From Nitrospirota bacterium (GTDB lineage Bacteria; Nitrospirota; Thermodesulfovibrionia; Thermodesulfovibrionales; Dissulfurispiraceae), in contig CAWBMP010000004.1 in the NCBI GenBank assembly GCA_963790025.1, positions 1,056,001 to 1,120,000 of the forward strand: a stretch of 64,000 nt of DNA, in the 5' to 3' direction. Shown here one piece after another: positions 7,172-28,094 of this stretch. The notes below the pieces were generated by a model. The model had not been told where the DNA came from and made no database searches. It saw only the letters and a list, made by a program, of their open reading frames with translations. The stretch's first letter is position 1, and each line of letters starts with the position of its first letter. The translations under genes and the position numbers were made by a program.

Positions 7172-7216
7172 TTGATGCTCCTTTGCACGTCAAAATCTCA
7201 CAACATCAGCACACTT

Positions 7217-7738: not shown

Positions 7739-7775
7739 CTATTCTCCTCTGTTAGGCGTTTCAGATTAATCGGTT

Positions 7776-8282: not shown

Positions 8283-8375
8283 CCCTGTTCTCCTTTCAGC
8301 TTTTGCAAGAGTTATTACCCATTCATATGGGATTTCGCTATACTTCATATTACCCGCGGGCCCCCGACCTGCCAC

Positions 8376-9161
8376 TTACCAGATGATATTGATCTGACCA
8401 TTTCCACCATTTCCACCTGGCCATCCGTCGAACCAGCCGCCACCGCCACCGCCTCCGTTGGTACCGTTTAAGGGGGGGAAACCATAACAATAACCATTAC
8501 CTCCGGTACCATAACTTCCGCCACCGCCACCGCCATATGATGGTGAGCCACCTGAAGAGTAGCTGTTTCCGCCACCGGCATATGACCCGCCGCCATTACC
8601 GCCTCCATAAAGAGTACCGATGCCAGAAACGCCTACGGTGTTCCCCACAGTAGCGGTTACTGTACCGTCAGTTGCGGACCCTCCGGCTCCTCCAGAAAAA
8701 TAATATGGCGGCCAGTTGTTCCAAGTGGGACCTGTTCCACCATTTGCGCGCAAAGTTCCGAAGGTTGTACTTCCCGCGTTGTAGCCATGAGAGCCAACGC
8801 TGTATGGAATCGAGTTACCTGAAGTAACATTTAAAAAATAGTATACAATTACGCCGCCACCACCTCCGCCGCCGCCACCGCACCCACCACAGGAATATTC
8901 GTTTGAGGATACTCCGTCACCGCCGGCGCCCCACATGGTGACCATGACCTGGCAAATCCCAGCAGGCACGGTCCAGTTGCCCGATTGACCGGCTGTCAAT
9001 GTTATATTTCCGTGGGAGCCGTTAGTGCAACTGCTGCTGCCGCCAATCCCCATGATGTAAACGTGGCTTGCCCCATAGGATGGATAGAATGACAGCATAA
9101 CTGCCAGCATCGAGACTGCCAAAACTGAAATTCGCCTGAATACACTCCTTTTTACCGGCAT
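8376..9161 (-). CDS. Secreted glycine-rich protein (Gly-rich domain, possible adhesin)
   Basis: Sec signal peptide; WTVPAGI..V.VTMWGAGG and many GGGGGG runs; ends GGNGQINIIW. Confidence 0.75.
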   Translation of the reverse strand: MPVKRSVFRRISVLAVSMLAVMLSFYPSYGASHVYIMGIGGSSSCTNGSHGNITLTAGQSGNWTVPAGICQVMVTMWGAGGDGVSSNEYSCGGCGGGGGGGGGVIVYYFLNVTSGNSIPYSVGSHGYNAGSTTFGTLRANGGTGPTWNNWPPYYFSGGAGGSATDGTVTATVGNTVGVSGIGTLYGGGNGGGSYAGGGNSYSSGGSPSYGGGGGGSYGTGGNGYCYGFPPLNGTNGGGGGGGWFDGWPGGNGGNGQINIIW

Positions 9162-9205
9162 AATCTGCTATGTGCACTCGTAAAGGCTGTCTTGCCTAAA
9201 CATGC

Positions 9206-10267
9206 TCAATGCCCCGCTCCCCCTTTGACCTGCGTGAGTGCACCGACAATAGTCATAAGGACATACACAACCAGCCCTACCGGCAGGATTGTAAGAACGG
9301 TAAGCAGTTTACTGAACGTGCCTGTAATGCCGCTCACAGTCTTTTCCACGTCCATCATCCTTTTAGCGACGATGGCCGAAATGGTTGTTTCTTCCCCGCT
9401 AGATTTGGACGAGGTTTTCAAAAGAGCAATTTCCACAGGGGTCAGATAATAAGAGAGCACCTTCGTCAACCCCTCTGAATTTTTCTCATGTGATTTCAGG
9501 ACGTATATTCTCTTATACAGCTTTTTGTCCTTCACCTTCTTAAAAAAGTCAATCGCATCCACAGACCCCAGCCCCAGGCCTACAAACGTCTTAATTATCA
9601 GCAAGTAGTTGGCCGATTTGACATACTTGTAAACTCTGTTCCAAACCGGCACTCTGTCAGGGAATCTGGCGAGAATAAAATGCACTAAGGCTATAGGGAT
9701 AAATGCGATAAAAAAGTAGCAACTCTTTATAAGAGCAATATTCGACAGATCCGCCTTTGGCATACTCTTGAAATTGTTATAAAAGGTGTTGACAGCCACA
9801 TAAGAAATAATCGCGACCATCACATACATAACGGTCGGCTCTATCAAGGCGCTATGCATTTTTGATTCAGCCTTATCAATTACTTGCTTCATGTTTACAT
9901 AATCGGACAATATTTCACTTGCTATCACCTGTTTACTTTCCGCACTTTTCAGTATGGCTATGATGTCTGCCGGAAGAATGTTTTTGTATGCAGCACTCGG
10001 CTTCTTCCCCTGAGACAGGAGCTTTATCGCACTCTCAAGATATACGTTGTCTTTCATGTCCTGGACAACATTCCGTAAAACGTCAAGCCTGGACAATCCG
10101 GATGTAATAATAGATATCTCGACACTATAGATCACTTCGATTGCCTCCTTCTTTTTGCCGACGGAGGCAATCTCGCGAAGCCATTCCCTCATTCCCGCAA
10201 TATCTATATTTACAAAACTAAACATATCGCTTAAATCATCGCACAACCCCATCAATTTTATTCTCAT
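9206..10267 (-). CDS. pilC: PilC/GspF-family inner-membrane platform protein (divergent)
   Basis: Two repeated soluble domains with TM helices, ILKSAE/ALIEP motifs, operon context; start set to ATG 10267. Confidence 0.65.
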   Translation of the reverse strand: MRIKLMGLCDDLSDMFSFVNIDIAGMREWLREIASVGKKKEAIEVIYSVEISIITSGLSRLDVLRNVVQDMKDNVYLESAIKLLSQGKKPSAAYKNILPADIIAILKSAESKQVIASEILSDYVNMKQVIDKAESKMHSALIEPTVMYVMVAIISYVAVNTFYNNFKSMPKADLSNIALIKSCYFFIAFIPIALVHFILARFPDRVPVWNRVYKYVKSANYLLIIKTFVGLGLGSVDAIDFFKKVKDKKLYKRIYVLKSHEKNSEGLTKVLSYYLTPVEIALLKTSSKSSGEETTISAIVAKRMMDVEKTVSGITGTFSKLLTVLTILPVGLVVYVLMTIVGALTQVKGGAGH

Positions 10268-10284
10268 TCCTGTTCCCCTTATAT

Positions 10285-11550
10285 TTAATTCGGATACACC
10301 ACTGTCCACCTGCAGAAGTCCGGATACACCGCGTTATCTAAACACAGCGGGCTCACAATAAGGCTCGCATACGGAGGGCGCGGGGTATAACTGTTGGTAA
10401 CCATCAAGGCAAGATAGTTCTGCTGCGGCAAAGGGGGGAGGTTCCCCGAGGCCGTGCACCCGGAGACGTCCCCCGTGCAATTATTTGAAATCGGCAGCAG
10501 TCTGAGCGGATTTCCAAAAGCATCTGCCGCATAAATCAGGTTTGAAGACAAAAGATTGGTTGTCACCAGGAGCCACGCCTTGGCAAAACTGGACACCTGG
10601 CCCGCTGTCGCCCATTGAGACCCTGATGCGATGGAAGTGCACGTGGTGTTATTGTTGCACAATACATTTGCGTTGGCCTGGGAAGACGCCAGCGCCTGCC
10701 ATATCCAAGGCACAAAAAAAATATCGTTGCTGGCGAGTCCGTTTGGAGGTACGTTTAGAAACTCACCTGTCATATTGCCTATGGCGTAATCCCTGAGCGC
10801 CACATCAAGGTTAATCATATTATCACGTGTTTTTTTTACCCTGTCGAAATACAGATCGGTCATGTTGAGGGTGTATGCCCCGTTGTTTATATCGCCGGCG
10901 GCATTGGTCATGTCGTTATGGGCCACAGTCTGCCCGGTGCTGCTGATAGAAGCGTTGTACTGGATATATACGGCAGACGGAAAATCGAGAAAGTTAAGAA
11001 AATCGGCGTTGGTGTTATTCATATGCGGCGTGGTAAACACATTCACGGTGTTTGCCACCGCATTGTTCAGCGGTCCGGTGGATGTCTGATACTGGATGCC
11101 GTTCACGTTCAAACTGCTGCAGTTAAACGTCACTGCCGTAGCCGTCTGCCCGGTGTATTGGCAAAACGACCCCACATTTTGAATAATTACTGTTACAGTA
11201 TTCCCGAAATTCGCAGTGTCTATATTGTATGTCAGCACCTGTGTCGTTGTGTTATACACCGGAAACGGCGACGTATTCTGGCAAATTGGGTGCCTCCACC
11301 CCCAACCGTCGTTAGCGTATGCGGCGGTTATATTGGTGCAGACAGTCGCTGCCGCATCCATTATCAATTTGGCGTTATTCTTTATCGCCACGGCAAGCAT
11401 CGAAATGTTATATGACTGCCGGCTGACCTGGGTTTGCATATTGTATGAACTTATCAGCTTCAACACGCCGCCGAGAACCATCGCCATGATGGCCAGCGAC
11501 AATGACAGCTCTATAAAACTGAACCCCTTATCGTTTGCAAAACGAGACAT
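10285..11550 (-). CDS. Large prepilin-type minor pilin / PilV-like tip adhesin
   Basis: KG/FSFIELSLSLAIMAMV class III signal; N/T-rich Cys-containing body; DAFGNPL motif. Confidence 0.78.
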   Translation of the reverse strand: MSRFANDKGFSFIELSLSLAIMAMVLGGVLKLISSYNMQTQVSRQSYNISMLAVAIKNNAKLIMDAAATVCTNITAAYANDGWGWRHPICQNTSPFPVYNTTTQVLTYNIDTANFGNTVTVIIQNVGSFCQYTGQTATAVTFNCSSLNVNGIQYQTSTGPLNNAVANTVNVFTTPHMNNTNADFLNFLDFPSAVYIQYNASISSTGQTVAHNDMTNAAGDINNGAYTLNMTDLYFDRVKKTRDNMINLDVALRDYAIGNMTGEFLNVPPNGLASNDIFFVPWIWQALASSQANANVLCNNNTTCTSIASGSQWATAGQVSSFAKAWLLVTTNLLSSNLIYAADAFGNPLRLLPISNNCTGDVSGCTASGNLPPLPQQNYLALMVTNSYTPRPPYASLIVSPLCLDNAVYPDFCRWTVVYPN

Positions 11551-12502
11551 CAATTTTCCCTTTTCCCAGGTTAATATCAAGTGTGTTCAAAGACACGTAG
11601 CAGTCTTTAATAGAATTGTACAGATCAACTGTTCTGGCAGCCTCGCCCTCGTAAGTGAGTTCAACACACCTTTCATTTCTGGTTTTAACATAAAAACCGC
11701 TGTCAAGCATCTCCAAAGAACACTTGTCAAAATTTCTGCTTTCTACAGCCTTTATGTCGCTTCTGCCCAATGCCAAAGTTTCGATTTCTGTCTTCCTCCA
11801 GACGCAAATATTCGTTGACGCAGCACCCATCTGCGGATATAGGTATTCCTTCCCGGCAGTCAGGATATATGAGACAGCCTTTGGGGTCTCGCTTTTTTGT
11901 ATTGTGAGACCGGATATCCGTGCATAGTTATCAGCCCGGACAGAAGATATAACACGGTCCAACTTTGCAACCACAAGCCTGCTGCCGATTACTTTCAACT
12001 TTTCCTTTTCTTTGTCATCGAGGTTGGCGGGAACGGAAGGTACCGCATTCATTATTCTAACAGGCTGCTTTTTAGGCCACACAAGATTGAACAGGCTATA
12101 AGAGAAGATGACAACAAACACAATTACAACAACTACAACTATCCTTTTGTCTATGCTTTTAATAGCATGCACTTTGGAGTCTTCAAATATCTCCAGGTCA
12201 TAGCCCTCAAAGAATTCCTCCAATCCGAACCGGGCCTCGCGCTCGTCTTCAAATGTCTTCCTGTTGATTACTATTTCGTCGCCATTTTTCTCAATAAAAA
12301 GATATTCCGTCACACTCATTGAATAGGATGCCTTGTCCAAATCCCTTGAAAGCAGATCTCTAACATTTTTAAGATAAACCTCTTCCTCTTTGTTGCCGAG
12401 CGCGACATACACCTTTTCATACGTCTGTTCGCCGGTCTCTTCATTGACCTTTTTTATCTTAAGGAGTATGGACTTCTTTTCTTTGTTCTCTAATATTCTC
12501 AT
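11528..12502 (-). CDS. Bitopic pilus alignment protein (PilO/PilN-like position)
   Basis: Cytoplasmic N-domain, one TM (IVVVVVIVFVVIF), periplasmic C-domain; coupled in operon. Confidence 0.5.
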   Translation of the reverse strand: MRILENKEKKSILLKIKKVNEETGEQTYEKVYVALGNKEEEVYLKNVRDLLSRDLDKASYSMSVTEYLFIEKNGDEIVINRKTFEDEREARFGLEEFFEGYDLEIFEDSKVHAIKSIDKRIVVVVVIVFVVIFSYSLFNLVWPKKQPVRIMNAVPSVPANLDDKEKEKLKVIGSRLVVAKLDRVISSVRADNYARISGLTIQKSETPKAVSYILTAGKEYLYPQMGAASTNICVWRKTEIETLALGRSDIKAVESRNFDKCSLEMLDSGFYVKTRNERCVELTYEGEAARTVDLYNSIKDCYVSLNTLDINLGKGKIDVSFCKR

Positions 12503-13279
12503 CTACCAGTTCACAAACCTTCTGTTTGTCGTGAAAAAAGTATTGCTTACATTGTTGACAATCTCGCTGCCAATCATATCGCCTTTTTTTAAAGGCCCTT
12601 CGCTTGTAATAGCAATACAGTTGCCATCCCTAATACATGTAATGCCGAATATTCTTATTTCCTTAAGCTGTTCTACTGGCGGAGGTGTCAGCGCTGATAT
12701 TTCCGCCAGCTTTCCCATGCCCGGCATATTTTTCTCCATCCTTTTCTTCATTTCTGCCAAATCGCCAGATGTTTCTATATGCTTCACATAAAACTCCTTA
12801 AACACATCCCGTTCTTCTGATCTTGTCGCTTTAGTTGTACTCCGCTCTTTTTGCGATAGGTCAGATATAGAAGTTTTATTCTCAGGCTTACGGACAGCGC
12901 CTGGAGTGTCGTCAGTTGGGTGAGTTCGCGGCACTCCCCCAGACATTGATACAGCCGCCTCTGCAGCTAATAGCGGTTGAGCGGTCACAATATTTTGCTG
13001 TCTCTGCGCAACTGTTGCACTGGCAACCTGGGTACCTGACGGCAAGGTCAAGGCATTACGGAGAGCTATCTGAATTTCTTTGCCGCCGCTATTTACCATA
13101 GAAGTTATAAAAGCGAAGCCTAAACAGGCACACAGAACGAATAACAACAGAGGCAACAACAAATTTTTCCTGTCTATTTTCTCGCTATCTTCCTGAAGTT
13201 CATCTGCAGCCTCTCCCGCACGGGTCTCACTTATATCGTTATCGGGCTTCTTATTTCTCTTTAACAGATCCCTTAACAT
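12503..13279 (-). CDS. Bitopic protein with C-terminal GspC/PilP-like domain
   Basis: One TM, flexible linker, IFGITC...AIT..G.LKKGDMIG..IV beta motif; overlaps secretin stop. Confidence 0.5.
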   Translation of the reverse strand: MLRDLLKRNKKPDNDISETRAGEAADELQEDSEKIDRKNLLLPLLLFVLCACLGFAFITSMVNSGGKEIQIALRNALTLPSGTQVASATVAQRQQNIVTAQPLLAAEAAVSMSGGVPRTHPTDDTPGAVRKPENKTSISDLSQKERSTTKATRSEERDVFKEFYVKHIETSGDLAEMKKRMEKNMPGMGKLAEISALTPPPVEQLKEIRIFGITCIRDGNCIAITSEGPLKKGDMIGSEIVNNVSNTFFTTNRRFVNW

Positions 13280-14813
13280 CCTTTTCCCCCTCCTTATCAG
13301 CCTTTGTTGCTGTTACTACAATAGCGAACTCGCTGCCTACCTTGTCTTTTTCCTGAGACCCAAACAAAGCCCCTAAAACTGGCAGCTTCGAAAGAAATGG
13401 TATCCCGCTCACGGTGATGGAGTTTTGGTTCGACTTGAATCCGGTCAGTACAAAGCTGCCCCCCCATTTTAAATCCAAAGGAAGAGCAGTATTCGTTACT
13501 GAAGTCAGCGGAGCAGTCGTAGGGTTTGTTCCACCAGAGGATTGCATGCTCACCAGCTCCGACAATTCTGCATAGACACCGCCGTTCAGCACGTCCAGTC
13601 TTATGTTAGGGAGTATCTTGATTTTAAGCCCTACACTTACATAATTGACTTGTGTGGTTGTCGAGGAAATCCCGCTTGTGATTGCCTGTGATTGAGTAAA
13701 ATACGGTATTTCCTGAACTTCATTGAAAAATATTGGGATACCATTTAGAGCATAGGCTTCCCATGTTTTTACTATTTTACTGTCACCGTAAGTGCCCAAA
13801 ACGCCCAGCAACGTTGTAACGGGATTCCCTTCTTTCGTCGTGTTATATCCGAAATTAAAGGCCCCTGCTGGAGCAAAGCTGCCTGTTATAGCAGCGTGTT
13901 TAATAACGGCGTTCCAGTTTACCCCGGCAGAGTAGTTGTCCGTCAGATCAACTCTGATTACATCAACCTTCAGTCTTACCCCTTCCATCTCCTTATCCTT
14001 TGCGACAATCTGCCGAACCTTGGATATGGCGCTTGGGACGTCATCCACAACGATGTAGCCACTTTTGGATATCTGCACTGATCCTTCCTTGGTCAGAAAC
14101 GACCTGATAAATGCCGTTGCAAAATCATCGAAATTCGCAGACATCGAGATACTGTCACTCCCTGAGGCCCCCGAAGCTCCAGCTGAAGAATTTCCAATTG
14201 GAGAACTTGTCGAGGTTGATTGTGTCCCTGATGTCCCAGGTGAGGAAGGTTGCATAGATGTTGAGGATGATGTATTACTCCCTCCGTTGCCAATAGCATA
14301 TGTGAAGAAAACATCCTTATCGATGATATATATTTCATGTTTACTTATCATCCAGATGTCATCTTTCTTTTCACAGTAAACGTCGGCACCTTTACAAAGC
14401 ACACGGACCGTATCGTCTATTGAATCCCCTGTATAGGCAAAACTTACGTTTATGTCATATAGCCCCTGTAGCTGCTGCGACGACTGCCCCCCAAAAGTGG
14501 GAGGGGGCAAAGGAGCAGGATTGCCCGGTGATGCCGGAGACAACGATGAAGACAGTGCAGACGAAGATATGGAATAACTGAAAGGCTTCATCTTGGCCAA
14601 ACACCTTAGCACTTCCCCAAACCTTGCCCCCTTGACGTTCAACCTTATCGACTCCCGAACCGGCGCCTTAACAACTTCTGCTACAGGGACCTGCTCAATA
14701 ACGTCTTTCTCTAAACTTGCTGAACTCGGCGCCTCGCCGGCCTGTATTGCGGAAACTCCGCAGCAAAAAAGCAACAACGACACCACTAAGACGCTATAAT
14801 CATTTTTATTCAT
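13251..14813 (-). CDS. Secretin 1 (PilN/MshL/GspD-family outer-membrane channel)
   Basis: Signal peptide, Ser/Gly-rich insert, GVNWN, VGLKIKILP, GIPFLSKLPVLGALFG secretin signature. Confidence 0.9.
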   Translation of the reverse strand: MNKNDYSVLVVSLLLFCCGVSAIQAGEAPSSASLEKDVIEQVPVAEVVKAPVRESIRLNVKGARFGEVLRCLAKMKPFSYSISSSALSSSLSPASPGNPAPLPPPTFGGQSSQQLQGLYDINVSFAYTGDSIDDTVRVLCKGADVYCEKKDDIWMISKHEIYIIDKDVFFTYAIGNGGSNTSSSTSMQPSSPGTSGTQSTSTSSPIGNSSAGASGASGSDSISMSANFDDFATAFIRSFLTKEGSVQISKSGYIVVDDVPSAISKVRQIVAKDKEMEGVRLKVDVIRVDLTDNYSAGVNWNAVIKHAAITGSFAPAGAFNFGYNTTKEGNPVTTLLGVLGTYGDSKIVKTWEAYALNGIPIFFNEVQEIPYFTQSQAITSGISSTTTQVNYVSVGLKIKILPNIRLDVLNGGVYAELSELVSMQSSGGTNPTTAPLTSVTNTALPLDLKWGGSFVLTGFKSNQNSITVSGIPFLSKLPVLGALFGSQEKDKVGSEFAIVVTATKADKEGEKDVKGSVKEK

Positions 14814-15767: not shown

Positions 15768-17390
15768 TCAATTGGATCTCTTCACCTTCAGGGCAATCAC
15801 TATTTCCGAGTTACTGCGTGTATCGTTGTCTGATTTAAAGAGGTTGCCCAACAGCGGTATTTTCGACAGCAGCGGGACCCCGCTTGTGGAAAACTCCCTT
15901 TGTTGTCGCCTTATCCCTCCTATCACAATCGTCTCGCCGTCCTTCAGCGTCACCGACTGCAACGTCTGCTGCACCGAGGAAACCGGGTTTGTAAATGTGT
16001 TACCCCCTACATTAAATGTCACGTAACTGTCTATTGTCGCCAGTATCGGCGCTATCTGCACATCTATCCTGCCGTCATCCCTTATATGACATCGCACTGC
16101 CAGCATTATGCCGTCCTGCGCACGGGCTATGGAATAATTTGTCTGCGATGTCCCCACCGTCCCCGATACGGTCGTCTGTATGCTCCCTATATAAGGTATG
16201 CTCTTGCCCGAAAATATCGCTACCGGCTGCAGGTTCCTCGCAAATATGTAAGGCTTCGACAATACCTCCACTTTCCCCTGGTCCTGCAACGCCTTCAGCA
16301 CCCCTGATATGTCGCTGGCTGTCCTCGTTACGGTCAATGTCGGCGATATCACATTCGTCACTGCGGTCGCCACCGTCAGCTGATCGCCGCCCGGCTTCGA
16401 TATCCTTGTCCCCCCTATCTTGTTTATGAGCACGTTCCAGTCTATGCCGAACTGTAAGTCCTCATTAGTCGTCACTTCGCTTATCGTGGCCTCTACTACA
16501 AGGAGCCTGTCTGATGATTCTTTAAGTCCGTTGATGTACTGAGAAATAAGCACTATGTTCCTTGGCGAGTCCACTACCATCAGGCTCGCTGCCAGCCAGT
16601 CAACTACATAGTGGCCATCCGCGGAAAGCAGCTTCTTTATGTTTTCCTCAAACATCTTCCTGCCGTCTACCGTATCTCCCGCTTTCTTTAGTGTTACATT
16701 TGCCTTGAGGTTCTGCGAGCCTGTATCTGCACCGCTGCTGCCATACCCTGTTCCTCCTCCTGTGCTGCTGCCGCTGTTGCTGCCGCCTACCATGTCCCCG
16801 CCCATCTCTGCCGTCATGTTCGGAGACGTTATACTTACATCAGGAATCGAAAAGTTCCTCACTATGAGCTTCTGTACGGTTATCGTCTTGTCCTTTATCT
16901 CATATCCATAGTTCACATAACCCGTTATAGCATCAAGTGCCTGTGATAAAGGGATGCCTCTGACATCCACTACCACGGGCAGATTGGGGTCCACCTGTGC
17001 CCCAAAGATTACCGTATATCCTGTCCCACTTCCCATTTCCAGCAAAATGTCCCCTAACCTCCGCCCATAGGAAGTCAGCGAGACAAGTGGTGCAGAGGAT
17101 ACCACCACAGGACGGGTTAAACCATTTTTCGGCAGGGCCGTGGCTCTCGTTCCATCTTCCGGATTCACAGAATCCGGCGGTACGATTGACTGAGGCATTT
17201 CAACATCGTTTCTTGTTTCTGACTTCTGACTTCTGCCCTCTGTCTCCGGCAGGACTGGCTTTGTTTCCAGTGCATGCTTGAGCAGCAACATGTATTCCTC
17301 ATCGGCATTCCTATTGACAGGATTTTCTGCATAAAGGAGTTTTGGGACAACCAGGACGACTACCGCCAGCGCATAGAACATCATTTTCAT
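15768..17390 (-). CDS. Secretin 2 (MshL/PilN-like, with STN-like N-domain)
   Basis: Start moved to ATG 17390 (signal peptide MKMMFYALAVVVLVV); FGIDWN, ALQDQGKVEVLSKP, GVPLLSKIPLLGNLFK. Confidence 0.9.
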   Translation of the reverse strand: MKMMFYALAVVVLVVPKLLYAENPVNRNADEEYMLLLKHALETKPVLPETEGRSQKSETRNDVEMPQSIVPPDSVNPEDGTRATALPKNGLTRPVVVSSAPLVSLTSYGRRLGDILLEMGSGTGYTVIFGAQVDPNLPVVVDVRGIPLSQALDAITGYVNYGYEIKDKTITVQKLIVRNFSIPDVSITSPNMTAEMGGDMVGGSNSGSSTGGGTGYGSSGADTGSQNLKANVTLKKAGDTVDGRKMFEENIKKLLSADGHYVVDWLAASLMVVDSPRNIVLISQYINGLKESSDRLLVVEATISEVTTNEDLQFGIDWNVLINKIGGTRISKPGGDQLTVATAVTNVISPTLTVTRTASDISGVLKALQDQGKVEVLSKPYIFARNLQPVAIFSGKSIPYIGSIQTTVSGTVGTSQTNYSIARAQDGIMLAVRCHIRDDGRIDVQIAPILATIDSYVTFNVGGNTFTNPVSSVQQTLQSVTLKDGETIVIGGIRRQQREFSTSGVPLLSKIPLLGNLFKSDNDTRSNSEIVIALKVKRSN

Positions 17391-17707
17391 TACTGCCGGT
17401 CCTCTTGCTGACCTGGAGATCGCAGAAATGGTCCGGATGGTTTCACAATTACGGTCTCCTTGTGTGCCGGATAAAATACTCCTCCCCTGATTGCTCCAGG
17501 AACAATAATTTCTTGGAGTATTTGTTCCTCCCAAATATATTTATATGGTTCGGAATAGGGGGTGAGTGTTTTATTTGCCCCTTTTGCTATATCTGTAACG
17601 GCTGTCTTCTTTCCCTCCTGAAAGCCTCTCGAATAATCGTCAGTAGTTGCGCATCCATAGGCAGCAAACAAAATAATCAGGCATGAGAAAACAGTTTTTT
17701 TATTCAT
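17390..17707 (-). CDS. Lipoprotein with a TraV-like C-terminal beta motif
   Basis: Lipobox LFAAYG-C; QEIIVPGAIRGGVFYPAHKETVIVKPSG parallels the TraV motif; stop overlaps secretin 2 start. Confidence 0.5.
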   Translation of the reverse strand: MNKKTVFSCLIILFAAYGCATTDDYSRGFQEGKKTAVTDIAKGANKTLTPYSEPYKYIWEEQILQEIIVPGAIRGGVFYPAHKETVIVKPSGPFLRSPGQQEDRQ

Positions 17708-18191
17708 GCCTTTTTGATCTCCATACCTTAAGCATATAGCCGTCCTGGGTCAGAAACGCCTCATCCGGTGCAAGCATCTTTGTTGTGACCAGGCCTTTTT
17801 TAACATAATCAATTTTATACCGGGCATCATAGACGTTAAAAGAATACGCATGCATGCCTATTATTACTGGCTCTTTGTTGAAAAGCATATAGTATGCTGT
17901 CAACGCATCATCTTTAAAGAGAAAAGGCATATTCCCCGATTGAATCAAAGTTCCATCCTCTTCCTTAAGATCAGTTCTGTAGACCGTCAGGATTATGTCA
18001 TCGCCGAATGAAGGAGAAATTATTGAAAAGCGTGAAGGTATACTATATTTTTCTCTTAAAACTTCAATCTTGTCGAGACCTTTTCCCGATATGCCCGCTC
18101 GCTCATATCTGGAAGTCCTCACTATTTCCTGTCCGAGACCAAAACCCGGCACTAATGTCAAAATAAATAGAAATGTTACCAAGCTACGCAT
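17700..18191 (-). CDS. Short secreted protein, weakly TraW-like
   Basis: Signal peptide; TDLKEEDGTLIQSG and AFLTQDGYMLKV recall TraW motifs; follows traC-like gene as in F-type order. Confidence 0.4.
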   Translation of the reverse strand: MRSLVTFLFILTLVPGFGLGQEIVRTSRYERAGISGKGLDKIEVLREKYSIPSRFSIISPSFGDDIILTVYRTDLKEEDGTLIQSGNMPFLFKDDALTAYYMLFNKEPVIIGMHAYSFNVYDARYKIDYVKKGLVTTKMLAPDEAFLTQDGYMLKVWRSKRHE

Positions 18192-18825
18192 TCTCAATAT
18201 TCCCTGCAAATAGCCCCATCCTCGAAAGAAGGTGGGGATCGGCGCCAAGAGGAAAACTCAAGAAGCGGACCTGCTTCTGAAATACCTTTGTCGGCAATAC
18301 TACCGGCCAGAATCCCAGGTTATAGCAGATAGACATATCTATGACGATATTGTCTGAATTTATCAGTATCGACTCTCTGTTACCGCATTTGGCATAGGAG
18401 AAATCTATTTTCCCTATCAAGTCGTAAATACTGTTTTTTTTGACGGCTATATAGAGAAAAAATTTCTTTGTTGCCACAATATGCGAAAGCTCCCTTGCTG
18501 ATAATAGTTCAGGCGCATCAGTTATTTGATCTTTTAAATGCATCACTTTGCATAAAGCGTCGTCGTAAATTGTTTTCATTCTGTCCATAACGTAGGATGG
18601 ATATAAAAATGTTTTAATGTTGCGTCCGGCATATTCGAGAGCAATATTTGTTCTGACAGCTATAATTGTTGAATCAAAAAATTCGTTCTGGATAGCCTGG
18701 TAGCTGCTGATATTTTTATTGACGGGGTCGCTTTTGAGGTATTTGGAATCAAAAACAAATCCGAGATGCCCGTCAGCCAATATCGATATCCCTTCCTCTT
18801 CCTTCCAGTACGGGCTTATATCCAC
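18184..18825 (-). CDS. TraC/VirB4 N-terminal-domain-like protein lacking the ATPase domain
   Basis: ISPYWKEEEGISILADGHLGFVF and GF...FLSFPLGAD recall both ends of the TraC N-domain; follows traV; no Walker A; 213 aa. Confidence 0.45.
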   Translation of the reverse strand: MDISPYWKEEEGISILADGHLGFVFDSKYLKSDPVNKNISSYQAIQNEFFDSTIIAVRTNIALEYAGRNIKTFLYPSYVMDRMKTIYDDALCKVMHLKDQITDAPELLSARELSHIVATKKFFLYIAVKKNSIYDLIGKIDFSYAKCGNRESILINSDNIVIDMSICYNLGFWPVVLPTKVFQKQVRFLSFPLGADPHLLSRMGLFAGNIENA

Positions 18826-19244
18826 TAATCCTCCCTCTCACCGGCAGTATTTTTCTTATAATTGTCAGAAGGAACTATAGTATCCAAGCCTGTCTCACGC
18901 GGCGTCCACCAGCTTTCTCCTTTGACAACAGCCCATACATAATGCTCTCCTATCAGACGTCCCATTGGTGATTTCATAGGTGCTATATAGATGCGTATTA
19001 CTTTTGCTGGCAATCGCATAGGCATACCCGGCGCGGCATAGCCGGTCATTCTATCCGTCCCGTTTCCCTTCCGCTCCAAAAGTCCCACGGTGTTATTCAG
19101 GGTTTCATTCACTTTATCCCTGACTGCCGGGGCATCAGTGTCGTTTTTTCTTTCTATTGTTCCGCAGCCACTTAAAGAAACAAACATAAATATAACGGAG
19201 ACATAAAATATTAAGCCCGTTCGACTTTTCCACCGATTGTTCAT
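18825..19244 (-). CDS. traV: F-type T4SS outer-membrane lipoprotein TraV
   Basis: Lipobox LSG-C; PMRLPAKVIRIYIAPMKSPMGRLIGEHYVWAVVKGESW. Confidence 0.8.
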   Translation of the reverse strand: MNNRWKSRTGLIFYVSVIFMFVSLSGCGTIERKNDTDAPAVRDKVNETLNNTVGLLERKGNGTDRMTGYAAPGMPMRLPAKVIRIYIAPMKSPMGRLIGEHYVWAVVKGESWWTPRETGLDTIVPSDNYKKNTAGERED

Positions 19245-19456
19245 TTACCCTCCCAATAAAATATTACTTCTGTCTTTCCACTTTGTTATTCCGTGGAAGC
19301 TATACTGACGTAACAAAGCATGATAAAGAGTTTGTACAAAAGCTGGGTTGAGGTTATCCCAACCTCCCCGCTTCCACGGCACCACCTGTTACCACTGCTG
19401 CTATACGAATAGCAATCACAGCGATAAACACAAACAACCCCGTCCACCTTGACTGC
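19245..19456 (-). pseudogene. Possible 3' part of a small secreted-protein gene split by the cargo insertion and frameshifted
   Basis: Start-less QSRWTGLFVFIAVIAIRIAAVVTGGAVEA, then after a 1-nt shift in a G run GWDNLNPAF...LLGG* ending TAAATG at the traV start. Confidence 0.3.
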
Positions 19457-19693
19457 GTTTGGGATCACTTGCAACCCAATGTCACTTACGGTTCGGGAAT
19501 TTGCCATAATTAAAATAATTTTCCAGCATTGTAGATGGTCTTACGGGACAAATTGTGTTTATTAGGGAGTTGATTACAAGTAGTGGGAATGCGCCGCCCC
19601 AAATTATCGATGATTACATGCACAGAGACATGAAACATTAATTAATCCCAAGGAAACGGCACTGAAAAACTTTAAATATCGAAGATCATATCG

Positions 19694-20854
19694 TTACCTG
19701 AATTCCACGCCGACAAAGTATTCGTCTTTCTTCGCAGTAATCCACCGTACTATGCCAACAGTTTTGTGTCTATCTCCTATCTGTATTCTTGTGTCTGTAC
19801 CGACTGAAACAGGTGCATGAAGAACGAGCTTGCAGCCGAAAGGAGATATCTCCTTCACTCTTGCTTCCTGTCCTGATTCAACTTTGTCCTTTATAACGAA
19901 ACATCGTGCCTGCATATCGCAAAACGTTCTTCCGGCTTTTCTTCTTTCTATGCCGGCATAAGCTCCCTTTTTATCTATCAATTTCTTATGTGTAAAAGCA
20001 AAAGATCTGTCTTTATAGATATCTGCGCTTTCGATTATCTTTTTGTATCCATACGCATTTACAAAAAAAACGGTTTTAAAATTGTCAGTTTTTGGAATAG
20101 TTTCGGCGGTGCCCAAGAAAAGATAGCCGCCTCTCTTCAGATTCCCGGAACACATATCAATAACTGTTTGCTTGGAATTGTTATCAAAATATATCAGGAC
20201 ATTTCTCAGGAAGATCATATCCATATTGTTGAATTCCTTGCATTTCTCACAATCCATAAGGTTACATGCCTCAGTTACAACTAACTTTTTGACAGTATCG
20301 TTTACCATGAAAAGATTATCCGCCGTCACAGTAAAGTATTTTCTTCTGATCTCATCCGACGTGTTTCTTAGAGAGTATTTATCATACACTCCCCTCCGAC
20401 CTATGGATAGAACGTTCTCATTTAGATCAGTAGCAAATATTTTTATGTCCCATTCAGATATGACATGCCTGAGTTGTTCCGCAAACAGTATTGCGAGTGT
20501 ATATGCTTCATCGCACGAGGATGCTGCAGCCGACCATATCCTGACCTTTTTTTGAACACTATTCATCCCCAGCAGTTCAGGGACGATATTTTTGCTTATA
20601 GCTGTGATTTGATTGTCGTCTCTGAAAAAACATGTTTCATTGACGGTAACAGAATCCAGCAATGACTGCCACTCCTGTCCGCTCTCATTAGAGGAAAGAT
20701 ACCGCATATACTGGCCGGGATTACTGCGGCCGGTATGAGCAATTCTCTGTGACACCTTCGTTTCAAGCGACTGACGGTTCCTGTCTGTAAAGAAAAGGCC
20801 GGATTTTTTGTAAATAAGGTCTCTCAACTCGACAAATTCGTTATCAGAAAACAT
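19694..20854 (-). CDS. cheR: CheR-type methyltransferase fused to a C-terminal PilZ domain
   Basis: TVNETCFFRD, RIWSAAASSCDEAYT, ATDL, IFLRNVLIYFD, GGYLFLG; then ERRKAGR...EISPFG...GIVRW...YFVGVEF. Confidence 0.85.
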   Translation of the reverse strand: MFSDNEFVELRDLIYKKSGLFFTDRNRQSLETKVSQRIAHTGRSNPGQYMRYLSSNESGQEWQSLLDSVTVNETCFFRDDNQITAISKNIVPELLGMNSVQKKVRIWSAAASSCDEAYTLAILFAEQLRHVISEWDIKIFATDLNENVLSIGRRGVYDKYSLRNTSDEIRRKYFTVTADNLFMVNDTVKKLVVTEACNLMDCEKCKEFNNMDMIFLRNVLIYFDNNSKQTVIDMCSGNLKRGGYLFLGTAETIPKTDNFKTVFFVNAYGYKKIIESADIYKDRSFAFTHKKLIDKKGAYAGIERRKAGRTFCDMQARCFVIKDKVESGQEARVKEISPFGCKLVLHAPVSVGTDTRIQIGDRHKTVGIVRWITAKKDEYFVGVEFR

Positions 20855-20877
20855 TCAGGCAACCTTTCTTTGTCATA

Positions 20878-21753
20878 TTATTTCATGCCTTGAGCAAGCA
20901 CTCCAATGTCACTGTCCGCCTTATCAAGATCAAGAACAAACTTCAGCAATATATCTTCATCAAGGTTGGGGACCAAACCCTTAATCATCCTGAATGATTC
21001 GGTCTCTGAAAGCATAACTCCCGTTTTATCCCCGCTAAAACCGAACCCCTTGACCCTTGCCATATGGTTTGAAAGCGCCGTTACTGCCACAAGGGCCTTA
21101 TGTTCATTTGTTGTATCTATTACGGAATGATGTTTCGAGACTGCCTCTGTCAGGCCACTTGAAAAACCCCATTTCTCTATTAGCCAGCCGCCAACAGTTG
21201 CATGTGATACGCCCATGGTGAGGACCTCAGCCTCATAAAGCGAGATATTGGAATCGTGGGTGAGCTTAATTACCTTTGAATAGATGTCATGGAAAAATCT
21301 GTCAAGCACTATTATCCCGACATCATGCACAAGGCCGGCTAAATATGCTTCCTCATGTATTTTTAAGTCGAAGGTTTTGCTGAAAATACCGGCTATCAGA
21401 GCAGTTGCCATTGAATGTTTCCAAAATGCCAGGGTATCTATGAGCCACGCAAGGCGATTTATTGCGCCGCCAATAATTGCAGACCTGCAAATGGCTTGGA
21501 GATTTTGGATGCCGATCAGTTCAATAGCATGATCGATCGAAGAAACCTTGAATGGAAGTCCGTAATAAACAGAGTTAACTGATCTTAATACATTTATACT
21601 TAGAGAAGGGTCTTTTTCTATGATATCGCTCAATGCATTGATATTCAGGTTTTCCTGGTCCATCAACCGCAGCAAATCAGACACATTATGCTCAAGCGCA
21701 GGAAGAGCTTTCTTTATCTCATCGACCCTGACTTTAAACTTATCTATAAACAT
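20878..21753 (-). CDS. HDOD-domain signalling protein
   Basis: LPAL, IEKDPSLS..VLR.VNS.YYG, FWKHS, AYLAGLVHDVG, HATVGGWLIEKW. Confidence 0.9.
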   Translation of the reverse strand: MFIDKFKVRVDEIKKALPALEHNVSDLLRLMDQENLNINALSDIIEKDPSLSINVLRSVNSVYYGLPFKVSSIDHAIELIGIQNLQAICRSAIIGGAINRLAWLIDTLAFWKHSMATALIAGIFSKTFDLKIHEEAYLAGLVHDVGIIVLDRFFHDIYSKVIKLTHDSNISLYEAEVLTMGVSHATVGGWLIEKWGFSSGLTEAVSKHHSVIDTTNEHKALVAVTALSNHMARVKGFGFSGDKTGVMLSETESFRMIKGLVPNLDEDILLKFVLDLDKADSDIGVLAQGMK

Positions 21754-21764
21754 ATAGCGTATTT

Positions 21765-23435
21765 CTATGCCCGCCCGGTGACCTTAAATTGGCTCATGTC
21801 CTCGTTAAGAACTAATGTAAGATTTAATAAATTGGTCGCCTCCTGTTTTATTTGGGCAGATGCGGTGCTTGTCTCCTTTGACACCGTTGCCACCACCTCG
21901 ATGTCACCGCTTATTTGTTCCGAAACACTTGACATCTCCTCTGTTGCTGACGCTATCTGCTGTACCATCGACTGAAGCCCGCCCACGCTCTCAAGTATCT
22001 TGTGAAGACTGACCCCGGCCTGGGTGGCGAGGTCCACCCCTACCACTACCTTCTTTGCACCCTCCTCCATGGACCCGACGGCTGTATCCGCCACCTGCTG
22101 TATCGCCCTTATCATGTCTCCTATTTCCGAGGTCGAATGCGCGGTCTTTTCAGCAAGCTTTCTCACTTCATCCGCAACCACCGCAAATCCTCTTCCCTGC
22201 TCCCCTGCACGTGCGGCCTCGATTGCGGCATTCAGCGCCAGAAGGTTCGTCTGGTCAGCTATGTCCTTTATCACATTAACGATGGCCCCTATTTCCTTTG
22301 ATTTCTCTCCAAGTGACTTCATTGTCTGCGCAAGACCTTCAACCGTATTTGCTATTTCCTGTACCTCCTCCACGGTTTTGTTCACAACGTTAGCCCCCTC
22401 ATTTGCTGTTCTTGAAGTGTCTGTTGCAGCTTCTGAAATGTTTGACGCATTTCTTGCTATATCAATCACTGTTTGGGACATCTCTGCTGAGGCTGTTGCA
22501 ACCTGTTCTGCCCTCGACACCTGCTCCCCCACCCGTTGAGTCAACTGAACAACTGTTGCGGAAAACTCTTCCGACGAGGACGCAAGACGATTGGAAGTGT
22601 CCGAGAGATCACCTATTATTTTTTTCAGGGACTTCTTCATGTTGTTAAGGGCTTCAGCAAGAACGCCGACTTCATCTGCAGACTTTATGTCGAGATCGTC
22701 GCAGGACAAATCGCCACGCGCTATCATATCAGCCATGCCGATGCTTTTCCTGAGCGGGGCGATGATGCGAACGGTTATAAAAAATCCCGCAAAGAAATTT
22801 GCGGCCGATATGCAGATCATAAATGCTACGGCAACCCAAAGAATATTTTTTAAAACTATGATTACATCATCCCGATAAATTCCGGTGCCGACGATCCATC
22901 CCCAATTCTTGTAAAGCTTTATGTAAGAAACCTTCGGGACCGGTTTGGACTCTCCGGGCTTGGGCCACATATAATCTACAAAACCTTCTCCTTTGTCCTT
23001 GCATACTTTCACCATCTCGATGAAAATGTGTTTGCCGTTCGGGTCCACATTATCAGTCAGCTCCTTTCCATCCAGTTCGGGTTTTATAGGGTGCATTATC
23101 ATCGTCGGATGCATATCGTTTATCCACAAATATTCCTGGTTGTTATAGCCGTACCGCAAATTCTGTATTCTTTCCTTTGCCCTCTGCTGGGCCTCTTCCA
23201 CCGTCAATTCACCTTTCTGAACACGCCTGCCATATTCATCCATCAGATTATAAGCCAGGCTCACTATGTTTTGTATACCCGTTTGTTTCTCGACTATTAA
23301 CTTTCCATTAATATAAGGCAGCAGAAACAATAAACCAATCAAGACGAATAGCACAGACATAAAAGGCATGATCGATATTTTCCAGCGCATAGACCAATCA
23401 CTGAAATTGAAAAAACGCCCGATGTTTCTTGCCAT
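21765..23435 (-). CDS. Methyl-accepting chemotaxis protein (Cache sensor, HAMP, MCP signal domain)
   Basis: YLWIND...MHP.KPEL.GK Cache motif; [38 protein letters not shown]. Confidence 0.95.
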
Positions 23436-23543
23436 CTTGTTTTACCTCCAGTTGGTACTGCTCATGGTTAAGTAGAACCCCACCGATCTATCTGCCTTGT
23501 CTATTAGCTTTCCATGATACGACTATCTTTTCAGCACATTTAT

Positions 23544-23930
23544 CTAATTTAAGGATTTTGGATAATGCTGCAAATATTCTCCCTCACATTGTTCAAATAA
23601 TAAAATACTTTCAGCATATTTGAAATGTACTCTAAATATGTTTGTCTCGAGTTCACGTTGCGATGCTCCCAAAGCTCTGAATGCTTCAATATATTCATTC
23701 AGGCTTTCAAACAGCCCTTCAAGACTTTCTCTGAAAACATTACAATTCTTTTTTATGGCAATGCTTCGTTGCCTGGATTCATCTATGAGAGATTTATATT
23801 GTTCTTTGTCACTCTCAGACAGAGTTGCAATATAGTCTTCCAAATTATGATATCTCACTTCGCTCCTGTAGCATCCCAAAATTAAATGCCAAGCTGTCTG
23901 TATCCTTTTAGGCAACCGGGGCATCTTCAT
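23544..23930 (-). CDS. Hypothetical helical protein; start uncertain because it overlaps the riboswitch-like element
   Basis: 128-aa ORF co-oriented with MCP; no family recognised. Confidence 0.4.
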   Translation of the reverse strand: MKMPRLPKRIQTAWHLILGCYRSEVRYHNLEDYIATLSESDKEQYKSLIDESRQRSIAIKKNCNVFRESLEGLFESLNEYIEAFRALGASQRELETNIFRVHFKYAESILLFEQCEGEYLQHYPKSLN

Positions 23931-23996
23931 TACAATTAAGATCCGAAGCTTTCCGCCTCCTTCCTCCTTAGGAGGGTGTCGGCCTTTGCTGCGATA
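23909..23996 (-). ncRNA. Degenerate c-di-GMP-I (GEMM)-like riboswitch
   Basis: Minus strand ...CCTCC-TAA-GGAGG..GGCGGAAAGCTTCGGATCTT..AAGATGCCCCGGTTGCC resembles the GEMM core; upstream of MCP-HDOD-cheR. Confidence 0.5.
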
Positions 23997-24088
23997 AATG
24001 AATTTTTTTGCCTATGGTATGTTAAGATAACGTATCCTGAGTATCAATATTAATTAAATATTAGGGTAATATTAGCTTAAAACTAATA

Positions 24089-24964
24089 TTATTTAATTGA
24101 CAATAAATATGTTCTTAGGTTGGTTTTTGTGTTATTTAAGCCAAGCTTTGCCCTTATATTATTTCTGTGGAAGTCGACTGCCGCCTTTGATATATTTAAA
24201 ATTTCTGCAATTTCCTTGGATCTTTTCCCTTCTTTGATAAAATTAATTACCCCAATTTCTGCCTGAGTGAGGTTTTGATATTGAGATGATAATCTCATTG
24301 AAAATGGTGAGATGATCTCAAGAAGACTGGATTCAAGAAGGTTAAGGTAGGATGCATATCTCTGGTCTGCCTCACCTTTCTTCAATTGTTCTATACATGG
24401 CAAGATGATTTTTTGTACGTTTGAAATAATGCGATTTTCAAGTTCTTTCTTGTCTTCCTCTCTCTGTTTCAGCAACACCTTCAGTGCAGTGTTTGCATCC
24501 GAAAGTTCATTTGTTCTTCTCCAGACCCTTTCTTCTAATTCATCGTGTGCTTTCTGTAGCTCTATTGTCAGTTGTGCCTTTTCCCGGTCTATTTTATATT
24601 TATGGAGAGCAACTTCTACCACAATTCGCAATTCTTTTGTTGTGAATGGTTTCAAAATATATCCATACGGTTCGGTTATCTTCGCTCTTTCAATGATATT
24701 TTCTTCGGAGTGGGCTGTAAGGTATATCACCGGCACGCCATAGTCTTTATTCATGCGACAGGCAGTCTCAATCCCGTCCATCTTCCCCTGCAGACTTATA
24801 TCCATCAATACCAGGTCGGGTCCCGCTTCTTTGATGCCCTCAAGTGCCTCTTTTCCGGAAGCATAGGTGCCCACAACAGCATAGCCCATTTCTTCCAGGT
24901 CGCTCTTTATTCGCAACGCCAGTATGCCTTCGTCCTCAACTATCAGTATTCTCTTCTTTTCCAT
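24089..24964 (-). CDS. Response regulator (REC, coiled coil, LuxR HTH)
   Basis: ILIVEDE, DLVLMDI, YILKPF; LT.AE..VI.FIKEGKRSKEIAEIL.IS..AV.FHR.NIR.KLG. Confidence 0.92.
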   Translation of the reverse strand: MEKKRILIVEDEGILALRIKSDLEEMGYAVVGTYASGKEALEGIKEAGPDLVLMDISLQGKMDGIETACRMNKDYGVPVIYLTAHSEENIIERAKITEPYGYILKPFTTKELRIVVEVALHKYKIDREKAQLTIELQKAHDELEERVWRRTNELSDANTALKVLLKQREEDKKELENRIISNVQKIILPCIEQLKKGEADQRYASYLNLLESSLLEIISPFSMRLSSQYQNLTQAEIGVINFIKEGKRSKEIAEILNISKAAVDFHRNNIRAKLGLNNTKTNLRTYLLSIK

Positions 24965-27900
24965 CTTTATTTCCTATTGTGAACGTTACGAGAGCTTCAG
25001 TCCCTCCATCACTTATTAGTTGCAGGGTCCCCATTAGCTGCTTGGCCAAAACATCCACGAGCTGAAATCCCAGAGTAGTTGTTTCTTTATAATCAAATCC
25101 TTCCGGCAAGCCAACTCCGTTGTCTTTGATCGTCAACGCATAGGTGTTCTCCGCCCTTGTAAAATAGACGCTTAATACCCCCCTTCTATTGTCAGGGAAT
25201 GCATACTTAAAGGCATTGGTGAGGAGTTCATTAATTATTAGTCCGCATGGGACTGCCGACTCCAGGTCAAATTCTATGTCCTCAATGTTGAGGACCATTG
25301 TGATCAAGTTGTCGTCGATATGGTACAGGGCCATTATCTCCTGAATTATTGAGTTGATGTGGTCCTTAAAGTTAATGGATGATAAATCTTTTGTCCCGCA
25401 GAGTTTTTCATGCACCAAAGATATTGACTTAACCCTCTGCTGGCTCTCTTCAAATAGGTGCTTTATATTGGGGTCTTTTATAGCGTTTGCCTGCAAAGCA
25501 AGAAGGCTCGATACTACTGCCATGTTGTTCTTGACTCTGTGATGAATCTCTCTGAGAAGGGTCTCCTTTTCTCTGAGTGATTGCCTTATCTGCTTCTCGG
25601 CGTGTTTGCGATCAGTAATGTCGCGACAGATGCTTAACATGGCGGGTCTGCCTTCGTATTCAACAATGCGGCAGTTGATTTCCGTGGGAATCACCGTGCC
25701 GTCGCGTTTCATTTGAGCGGTTTCGAATATGAGTTCGCCATCTTTCTGTATCTTATTAATGCGCTGGCTCACCAGGTCTGTATATTCAGGCGTATCTAAA
25801 TCAGCTGGCTTCATCCGTAACAGTTCCTCTTTATTATAGCCAAGACGATCGCAGGCTACATTATTGGCCTCAACTATATGCCCCGGCAAATCAAGGATCA
25901 ATATCGCGTCGTTTATACTGTTGAAAAGGGATTTGAATTTTTTCTCTGATATTATTAATGCCTCTTCAGTATGTTTCCTGTCGGTGTAGTCATCGACAGC
26001 TACGATAACATTCGGCTGGCCGTCAAACTGATAAGGTTCTGCGCTGATGCTCAGCCAGCGCTGTTGGGGGATGCCACTGACAAGCAATTTGAGATTTATC
26101 AGTACCCCGTGCATTTTCGACCCTTCGGCTATTACATTTTCTATGCCTCTGCGTAAGTTGCAATCGGGACATGACATGGAGAAACCGCAGCCTCTCGGGT
26201 CCTCAAGGCTGTGAATACAACCTAACCCTCCACCGGCGCGCATCCCGATAACTTCTGCCGGCTCACGCACCACCATCCCTCTGATGGCCTCGTTTGCCCG
26301 AGTGATGACCGTCTCTCTGTTCAGCAATAGAAGACCCACAGGCGCAGCCGAGAATATTCTCAAAAAATTCTCATGGTCTTTTTTAAGCTGCCCCACTATG
26401 CGCTTGTGTTCGGTGACGTCTCTGGTTATGCCGAGCAAGGCAACAATCTCGTCTTTATCATTACGCAACGGGACCGCATGAGTTTCAAACCAAATATGCG
26501 CGCCTTTAAGACCAATAGCCTCAAACTCAAGAGTTCCTGATTCGCCTCCGAAAACATCTTCGGTCAACGACTTGAATGCCCCCCGATATTCCTCGGTCAC
26601 CAATGTATAAACACTCTGTCCTTTAATTTGCTCCAGGCAATCGGCCTCTATCATCGAAAGTCCCGCACGGTTCATTTGAAGGACCCTACCATTGGCATCG
26701 AGCAGTTTAACGCATTCCGGCTCGGTTTCAATAATTGTTTGCAGGAATTTTTCACTTTCTACAAGTGCTTTCTCGGCCCGCTTGCGTTTAGTGATGTCCT
26801 CCACCATGGTTATGAAATAAAGGGGTTCATTAGTTTCTGAACTTAGAAGGGAGACAGTTAAATTGACCCATAAAATGCCGCCACTCTTACTCAAGTAGCG
26901 TTTCTCTATTGAAAAAAACAATATCTTTCTCTTGAGCAACTGCTCGGCCTGTTCAGTATCCTTCCCTGCATCGTCAGGATAGGTAATGTCACAGACTGAT
27001 TTTGTAGTGAGTTCTTCTTCTGAGTAACCGACGAGCTGACACATTCTGTCGTTTACCTTTTTGTACCGTAAGTCCAGCCCAACCATTGCCATTCCGAGCG
27101 GTCCATTTTCAAAGATCTTCCGGAACCGTTCTTCGGTCTCGCGAAGAGTCTGTTCGGCACGTTTGCGTTCGGCAATATTTTGTCTGAGCTCTTTATTAAG
27201 CTTTATAATTGTCAGATACCGCCATAATGCCATGCCGCCAACAGTTATAAACAGAAAAATGCCACCCACGGTGACTATTCTCTTAGTTGTCCAATAAGGG
27301 ATCGGCTTGCCGTACCATTTCATATAAATCTGCTGATATTCAGGACCTCCCACAAAACCTCCTATCGTCCTGTTCAGCAGTTCAAGCAATGCAACGTTGT
27401 CCTTGCGCACTGCAATGCACCTCTTAGCTTCGTCAAGTGGCTTACCGACCTTTTTTATGCGCCCTTCTAACCCCGACTCTCTGGCAAGTTCCAGAATTAT
27501 TGATTCCGGGCCTGCGAACAAATCGATCTTCCCGGCTAAAAGAGCAAAAAGAGCTTCCTGTAAATTATCATTTTGGACAAAACTTATATTTGGGCGATCC
27601 TTCAGCTTGTCATAGGTAGCGCTTTTTTTCAAAAGTCCCACCGTAATTCCCTCGGGCAATCTATCTGCATCTATACTGCTTTGAGAACGAACAAAAAAGG
27701 AGATGTAGGATATATCAATCGGAGTGGTAAACAGGAGGTCCTTTTTGCGCTCTTCGCTGATAATCATACCACTGAGGTCCGCTTCGCCTCTTTCCACCTT
27801 ATCTATTATCGACGGCCAGCTATTGTCACACATATAATATACTTGAAGCCCCGCACGTTCAGCGACTTTGTCCATAACATCAACAAAAAAGCCTGTTGGT

Positions 27901-28094
27901 TTGCCGGTTCTATTATCCAAAAAATTTGTTGGCGGATAATCACAGCGGATGACAGCAATAACCTTCTTCGGAACAGAAGACGCATGATAAGGTGCAGTCC
28001 GGGCATTTTCACCTGCTGATTGAGCAGCAGATACAAGTAATGACAGTATAGCTAAAATTAGTGATATTTTAGAGCTATGAGATTTACCTTTCAC
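24936..28094 (-). CDS. Sensor kinase: periplasmic solute-binding (family 3) domain, TM, four PAS domains, HisKA_2/HATPase
   Basis: DYPP..G..TGFFVDV PBPb motif; repeated PAS/PAC ends (EDITKRK, RDVTEHK, DDYTDRK, RDITDRK); EIHHRVKNN; NELLTNAFKYAF; DNGVG. Confidence 0.92.
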   Translation of the reverse strand: MKGKSHSSKISLILAILSLLVSAAQSAGENARTAPYHASSVPKKVIAVIRCDYPPTNFLDNRTGKPTGFFVDVMDKVAERAGLQVYYMCDNSWPSIIDKVERGEADLSGMIISEERKKDLLFTTPIDISYISFFVRSQSSIDADRLPEGITVGLLKKSATYDKLKDRPNISFVQNDNLQEALFALLAGKIDLFAGPESIILELARESGLEGRIKKVGKPLDEAKRCIAVRKDNVALLELLNRTIGGFVGGPEYQQIYMKWYGKPIPYWTTKRIVTVGGIFLFITVGGMALWRYLTIIKLNKELRQNIAERKRAEQTLRETEERFRKIFENGPLGMAMVGLDLRYKKVNDRMCQLVGYSEEELTTKSVCDITYPDDAGKDTEQAEQLLKRKILFFSIEKRYLSKSGGILWVNLTVSLLSSETNEPLYFITMVEDITKRKRAEKALVESEKFLQTIIETEPECVKLLDANGRVLQMNRAGLSMIEADCLEQIKGQSVYTLVTEEYRGAFKSLTEDVFGGESGTLEFEAIGLKGAHIWFETHAVPLRNDKDEIVALLGITRDVTEHKRIVGQLKKDHENFLRIFSAAPVGLLLLNRETVITRANEAIRGMVVREPAEVIGMRAGGGLGCIHSLEDPRGCGFSMSCPDCNLRRGIENVIAEGSKMHGVLINLKLLVSGIPQQRWLSISAEPYQFDGQPNVIVAVDDYTDRKHTEEALIISEKKFKSLFNSINDAILILDLPGHIVEANNVACDRLGYNKEELLRMKPADLDTPEYTDLVSQRINKIQKDGELIFETAQMKRDGTVIPTEINCRIVEYEGRPAMLSICRDITDRKHAEKQIRQSLREKETLLREIHHRVKNNMAVVSSLLALQANAIKDPNIKHLFEESQQRVKSISLVHEKLCGTKDLSSINFKDHINSIIQEIMALYHIDDNLITMVLNIEDIEFDLESAVPCGLIINELLTNAFKYAFPDNRRGVLSVYFTRAENTYALTIKDNGVGLPEGFDYKETTTLGFQLVDVLAKQLMGTLQLISDGGTEALVTFTIGNKDGKEENTDS

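Follow-up and report, generated by a model that had tools for sequence, protein, structure and literature searches.

The window analysed here is a stretch of 64,000 nucleotides from a Nitrospirota bacterium of the Dissulfurispiraceae (assembly GCA_963790025.1, contig CAWBMP010000004.1, positions 1,056,001 to 1,120,000). On its minus strand, a gene for a protein of 213 residues, here called X, follows the gene of a TraV-like lipoprotein within a set of genes for a type IV secretion system (T4SS), and genes of a type IV pilus follow further downstream (Table 1). We regard X as a conserved stand-alone protein that resembles the N-terminal domain (N-domain) of TraC/VirB4 and lies in the traC slot of an element combining a T4SS with a type IV pilus; the probability that X shares ancestry with TraC is put at roughly 0.55. 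The start codon of X is GTG, located behind a GGGAGGA stretch, and base 18825 is common to this start and to the stop of the TraV-like gene (TAGTG). At its 3' end, X overlaps the next gene, here called Y, by 8 bp (ATGCGTAG), the ATG of Y being at 18191. The same 8-bp overlap between X and Y is observed in a related locus (L008). Translational coupling of X to traV and to the next gene belongs to the explanation that we slightly favour. The P-loop pattern [AG]xxxxGK[ST] is present in 0/21 members of the X family. A hydrophobic segment is likewise present in 0/21 (the maximum Kyte–Doolittle mean over 19 residues is at most 1.58, against 2.75 for TraL), so X should be cytoplasmic. An earlier sequence-only reading of this DNA had described an open reading frame (ORF) of 213 residues that overlaps both neighbours and has no nucleotide-binding domain, and each of these points was confirmed.

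The same reading had placed X in the traC slot after traV. X is found only downstream of traV, and directly after it in 5/5 X loci (the window and four relatives). In a survey of 18 TraC loci without X from the phylum sample, for which 25 of the 46 listed upstream ORFs were scanned, traV immediately precedes traC in 12; in the other six, the preceding gene is TraF (3), DsbC-like (1), RRXRR (1) or unnamed (1). The X-type elements have, in 5/5, a VirB11-like T2SSE ATPase as the upstream neighbour of traC; these elements are kin, and the 5/5 counts are not independent events. The order of genes at both sets of loci bears out the placement in the traC slot.

The similarity to TraC was examined by profile comparison using hhalign. 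The alignment of X (21 sequences) and that of the TraC N-domain (34 sequences) match with a score of 29.8 and a P value of 0.002 (0.0014 in a separate run). As controls, reversed alignments score 14–15, and 40 column shuffles reach at most 20.5, none reaching 29.8. The signal corresponds to residues 2–31 of X, which are aligned to the beginning of the N-domain of TraC. Using the first 32–34 columns only, P lies between 5.8e-5 and 1.9e-4 for all or canonical TraC, with 5.8e-5 to 1.3e-4 for the first ~30 columns taken alone. According to the comparison by TraC subgroup, P is 1.9e-4 for the canonical group and 8e-4 for the divergent group, both at the equivalent N-terminal position. The N-terminal motif PY..[DE]E..i..l.DG..G-aromatic of the TraC N-domain is present in X at the level of a motif, and a hidden Markov model (HMM) of the TraC N-terminal motif ranks X 12th of 41,609 ORFs of the genome (E 7.3). 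The claim that X begins like TraC therefore stands statistically but weakly. The claim that X also ends like the TraC N-domain is not confirmed: the best local match of the C-terminal RFLSLPLGA is the 'sLPfg' region of TraC with a P value of 0.077, which is not significant, and no such match recurs in the TraC subgroups.

The AlphaFold2 model of X is of moderate quality, with a predicted local distance difference test (pLDDT) score of 68.4 and a predicted template modelling (pTM) score of 0.62; the other four models are at 38–55. Among 48,161 chains, the three best structural neighbours of the model are the N-domain of TrwK/VirB4 and two chains of ESX type VII secretion systems. The same three chains top the neighbour list for the genuine TraC N-domain of this genome, and 13 of the 20 neighbours of the latter with at least 150 aligned residues are among the top 50 of X. 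The ESX chains (7b9f_E, 6lar_G, 6sgz_D) are presumably EccE, judging from chain size and residue range. Since the neighbourhood is shared with the TraC N-domain, the predicted structure suggests that X has a fold of the VirB4-N-domain/EccE type, and this is the best evidence for such a fold. Foldseek with the X model against the PDB yielded nothing at E<=0.001. Re-alignment of its top 1000 chains gave no VirB4 chain among the 50 matches listed, and this run is no retest of the VirB4 match.

Several results weigh against the ancestry with TraC. Nothing in Pfam and NCBIfam matches X at E<=0.1, TraC_F_IV (PF11130) or CagE_TrbE_VirB (PF03135) is matched at E<=10 by 0/11 members of the family, and the X profile matches nothing at E<=10 among the PDB sequences. 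BLASTP of X against the TraC of its own genome gives an E value of 3.1, and in the reverse search, the HMM of the X N-terminal motif does not recover this TraC. Using hhalign, no match at the right place was obtained between X and the TraC type of the element itself. This TraC type carries an insertion of 5–6 residues within the N-terminal motif, and X has the canonical spacing there. When the first ~30 columns are removed, no profile signal is left (P 0.14). After the first hairpin, a long helix follows four strands in the X model, whereas the TraC N-domain model has three strands, a helix and a strand.

As the main rival to ancestry with TraC, X would serve the embedded pilus module as a lineage-specific accessory protein in the cytoplasm. 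According to this explanation, X would link the pilus ATPases or the platform to envelope parts, like PilM or GspL-type proteins, and the likeness of the N-terminal motif and of the fold to TraC would be due to chance or convergence. We consider it possible but doubtful. Neither PilM, GspL nor another pilus family of Pfam is matched at E<=10 in 11 members, and no PilM/GspL-type protein is among the 50 matches listed per fold search, which does not thereby exclude an actin-like fold. In addition, the three best fold neighbours are identical to those of the genuine TraC N-domain, the motif is aligned at the equivalent position in two independent TraC subgroups, and X is located downstream of traV in all five loci in which it was found.

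The conservation of X bears on a second alternative, in which X is a decaying, functionless remnant of a truncated traC. The location in the traC slot and the fact that only the start of X resembles traC would fit a remnant. A word-indexed search found 19 homologues among 83 candidates, with 46–100% identity and lengths of 210–218 residues plus one partial record of 139 residues. An exhaustive phmmer scan of 1.84 billion representatives of any length found four relatives only, with 33–47% identity and lengths of 209–217 residues. All the homologues found are short (209–218 residues) apart from the partial record, and those in relatives lie directly after traV; the sequence-only reading had proposed a search for homologues of ~200 residues in the same synteny, and they exist. 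The alignment of 11 sequences, down to 33% identity, contains 32 invariant columns. The ratio of nonsynonymous to synonymous substitution rates (dN/dS) is 0.14–0.24 in six pairs with unsaturated dS, and X is under purifying selection. The overlapping start and stop codons are also retained in relatives. Set against this constant length, conservation and selection, a remnant is very improbable. The X family is rare. Its profile matches 1/301 sampled genomes of the phylum, which is the genome of the window, and four further loci in a collection of species-level genomes, all of them metagenome-assembled genomes of Nitrospirota, Nitrospirae or Nitrospira. A profile search of proteins of 383–2000 residues found no fused form of X at E<=0.1, which is weak evidence, and an ESM Atlas search with X gave no usable match.

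Full-length TraC is present in the same element. A TraC of 869 residues with PF11130 and a P-loop domain (Walker A GETGTGKS) is encoded 43 kb downstream of X on the same strand, and it adjoins a VirB11-like ATPase and a coupling protein. Open TraC frames of 839–903 residues are present in all four other X-bearing genomes; in one of them (G301), TraC is located 24 kb downstream of X within the same gene string. The sequence-only reading had implied that this T4SS keeps only a structural VirB4, to which the place of X in the traC slot and its lack of a P-loop would correspond. Because of the full-length TraC in this element and in 4/4 other X-bearing genomes, a T4SS that has lost its VirB4 ATPase is refuted. 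The TraC proteins of the X-bearing elements (L001, L009–L012) are divergent, scoring 29.6–53.8 bits on PF11130 against 204–277 bits for the canonical TraC of the phylum; the 50.1 bits of the G301 TraC are the sum of two pieces. What looked like a short TraC N-domain ORF in another Nitrospirota genome (L037) was rejected as a further case: this traC lies at the end of a contig and is divided between two frames. Either the gene is broken or the assembly is in error, and no N-domain-only protein is encoded.

According to the explanation that we prefer, by a modest margin over even odds, X is a stand-alone relative of the TraC/VirB4 N-domain without the ATPase and shares ancestry with TraC. As parts of the same explanation, X probably stayed at the ancestral position of traC, directly behind traV, and coexists with full-length TraC, and the TraC further downstream beside the VirB11-like ATPase and the coupling protein is probably the working one. 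All T4SSs have VirB4 as their signature ATPase; its assembly is a hexamer of dimers with six outer copies. As described in an excerpt of a review, the N-domains of VirB4 join the two protomers within every dimer and are in contact with VirB3 and VirB8, and the outer protomers are seemingly structural only, the need for them being called unclear (PMC12857230). In the case of DotO, the N-domain serves receptor binding and dimerisation and the C-domain multimerisation, as given in an excerpt of PMC11474061. By analogy with these roles, X as an N-domain-only protein would be left with docking and pairing but not with the motor. X may retain the docking to the inner-membrane receptors, namely TraL/VirB3 and the tails of the VirB8-like protein (TraE), and/or it may pair N-domain to N-domain with TraC, in each case at the cytoplasmic face. 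Having no hexamerising motor, X would be a structural adaptor or regulator in the cytoplasm, located at the machine's base. As X lies at the junction, it possibly connects the platform of the T4SS with the pilus apparatus encoded in the same element. The stretch 186–213 is invariant in part (P192–A195) and is modelled with low confidence; the C-terminal PLGA stretch, invariant and apparently disordered, is therefore a candidate docking peptide in terms of the model. A bolder version is improbable in our estimation. In that version, X would be an N-domain-only VirB4 paralogue in a purely structural VirB4 position of the inner-membrane platform that physically couples the base of an F-like T4SS to the pilus motor in one chimeric machine, and X could replace the 'outer-ring' protomers holding the VirB8-like arches or cap the TraL/VirB3 sites.

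X differs from the known VirB4/TraC N-domain (PF11130; TrwK of R388, PDB 7o42) in several respects. X is about half the size (213 against ~430 residues), has no C-terminal RecA-like ATPase, is below every family threshold and coexists with full-length TraC, and the order of secondary structures in its model deviates after the first hairpin. EccE is membrane-anchored through N-terminal helices, whereas X has no hydrophobic segment. Compared with the three ESX chains, X belongs to another phylum and to another secretion system (T4SS and type IV pilus), shows no sequence similarity, and has no ESX gene context. An 'EccE3-like domain fused to a VirB4-like ATPase' is mentioned for extended CoCoNuT loci in an excerpt of PMC11090510. 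This domain, recognised by structure modelling, seems to be of the same type; it is fused to the ATPase there, whereas X stands alone. The published fusion, as far as the excerpt describes it, fits the picture of a VirB4-N-domain/EccE-type fold in X. Conjugation systems with both a T4SS and a type IV pilus are represented by the IncI/R64 thin pilus and PAPI-1 in the excerpt of the review (PMC12857230). Like these, as they appear in the excerpt, the present element is conjugative and has both genes of the VirB4 and type IV coupling protein types and a type IV pilus. Unlike them, the pilus module is located inside an F-like traL-E-K-B-V ... traU-traG-traC string, and an extra N-domain-only protein is present at the junction of T4SS and pilus. 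A literature search of titles and abstract starts, which may have missed an existing description, found no stand-alone VirB4 N-domain protein. A natural and conserved N-domain-only protein would provide a means to tell the docking and dimerising function of VirB4 apart from that of the motor. X is also the marker of a family of conjugative elements in Nitrospirota whose T4SS gene string contains a type IV pilus module, and such elements bear on the working of T4SS–pilus chimeras.

The features around X are collected in Table 1. The genes around X do not form a plain tra operon; X heads a type IV pilus module within the T4SS gene set. The element is a conjugative T4SS in which the pilus module is inserted between traV-X and the rest of the T4SS.

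Table 1. Features of the window in the vicinity of X.
Feature	Coordinates	Strand	Basis
X, 213-residue cytoplasmic TraC/VirB4 N-domain-like protein without ATPase domain	18184..18825	minus	ORF, family, N-terminal motif, fold neighbours
TraV-like lipoprotein	18825..19244	minus	PF09676, E 1.2e-7
Y, 163-residue secreted protein of no known family	17700..18191	minus	N-terminal hydrophobic leader
Z, 105-residue lipoprotein	17390..17707	minus	leader ending in cysteine, read by eye
Secretin 1 of the embedded type IV pilus module	15768..17534	minus	PF00263, E 5.6e-34
Secretin 2	13251..14813	minus	PF00263, E 2.6e-21
Rest of the pilus module	2865..13279	minus	Pfam/NCBIfam scans; includes unnamed genes
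Prepilin-like protein	10285-11580	minus	pilus module
Platform protein (T2SSF)	9206-10309	minus	pilus module
PilB/MshE-like ATPase	5288-7171	minus	pilus module
PilT-like ATPase	4037-5263	minus	pilus module
T4SS block preceding traV in relatives	30314..33393	minus	Pfam TraL, TraE, TraK_C, TrbI
traL	33076-33393	minus	Pfam TraL
traE	32464-33066	minus	Pfam TraE
traK	31570-32388	minus	Pfam TraK_C
traB	30314-31564	minus	Pfam TrbI
Signalling cassette of ~11 kb between traB and traV	19286..30300 (approximate bounds)	minus	CheR and PilZ by Pfam, rest by eye

The TraV-like gene is the sole TraV match in the genome. The gene downstream of X had been called traW-like, which is not confirmed: no family of Pfam or NCBIfam matches Y at E<=0.1, and the Atlas search gave no lead of use (all scores <0.8). 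Y is kept downstream of X in the four related loci L005–L008. Z has no family match in the Pfam and NCBIfam scans. The best NCBIfam matches of secretin 1 are MshL and PilN-type, all below the cut-off. Two small ORFs of 99 and 92 residues (15074-15664) are located between both secretin genes and look like a toxin–antitoxin pair of the HigB/HigA type by eye. Only one secretin is present at this position in two of the relatives (L007 and L008).

In the four related loci, the order is traL-E-K-B-V-X-Y-small gene-secretin-pilus genes. The signalling cassette is present in the genome of the window only, and L005–L008 have traB directly before traV. By eye, the cassette contains ORFs that are HDOD-like, chemoreceptor-like and GGDEF-like, a response regulator and a PAS histidine kinase of 1052 residues. 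The string of G301 is uninterrupted: the pilus ATPases are followed by TraU-like, TraF-like and SLT genes, the VirB11-like ATPase, TraC of 883 residues, the coupling protein and Replic_Relax. In the genome of the window, the corresponding genes are located upstream of the window. A second type IV pilus cluster, separate from the first, is present there between the pilus module of the window and the TraU...TraC genes (L003, G000:C4:1036001-1056000). It comprises a secretin, PilB with MshEN, T2SSF, a pilin and a T2SSE ATPase of 344 residues, together with PIN and AbiEii genes, and it is absent from the contiguous G301 element. In G301, just beyond the coupling-protein and relaxation genes, an ORF of 1092 residues has all five RNA polymerase Rpb1 domains (L019:863-4141), and a ParM/actin-like gene is located near this ORF.
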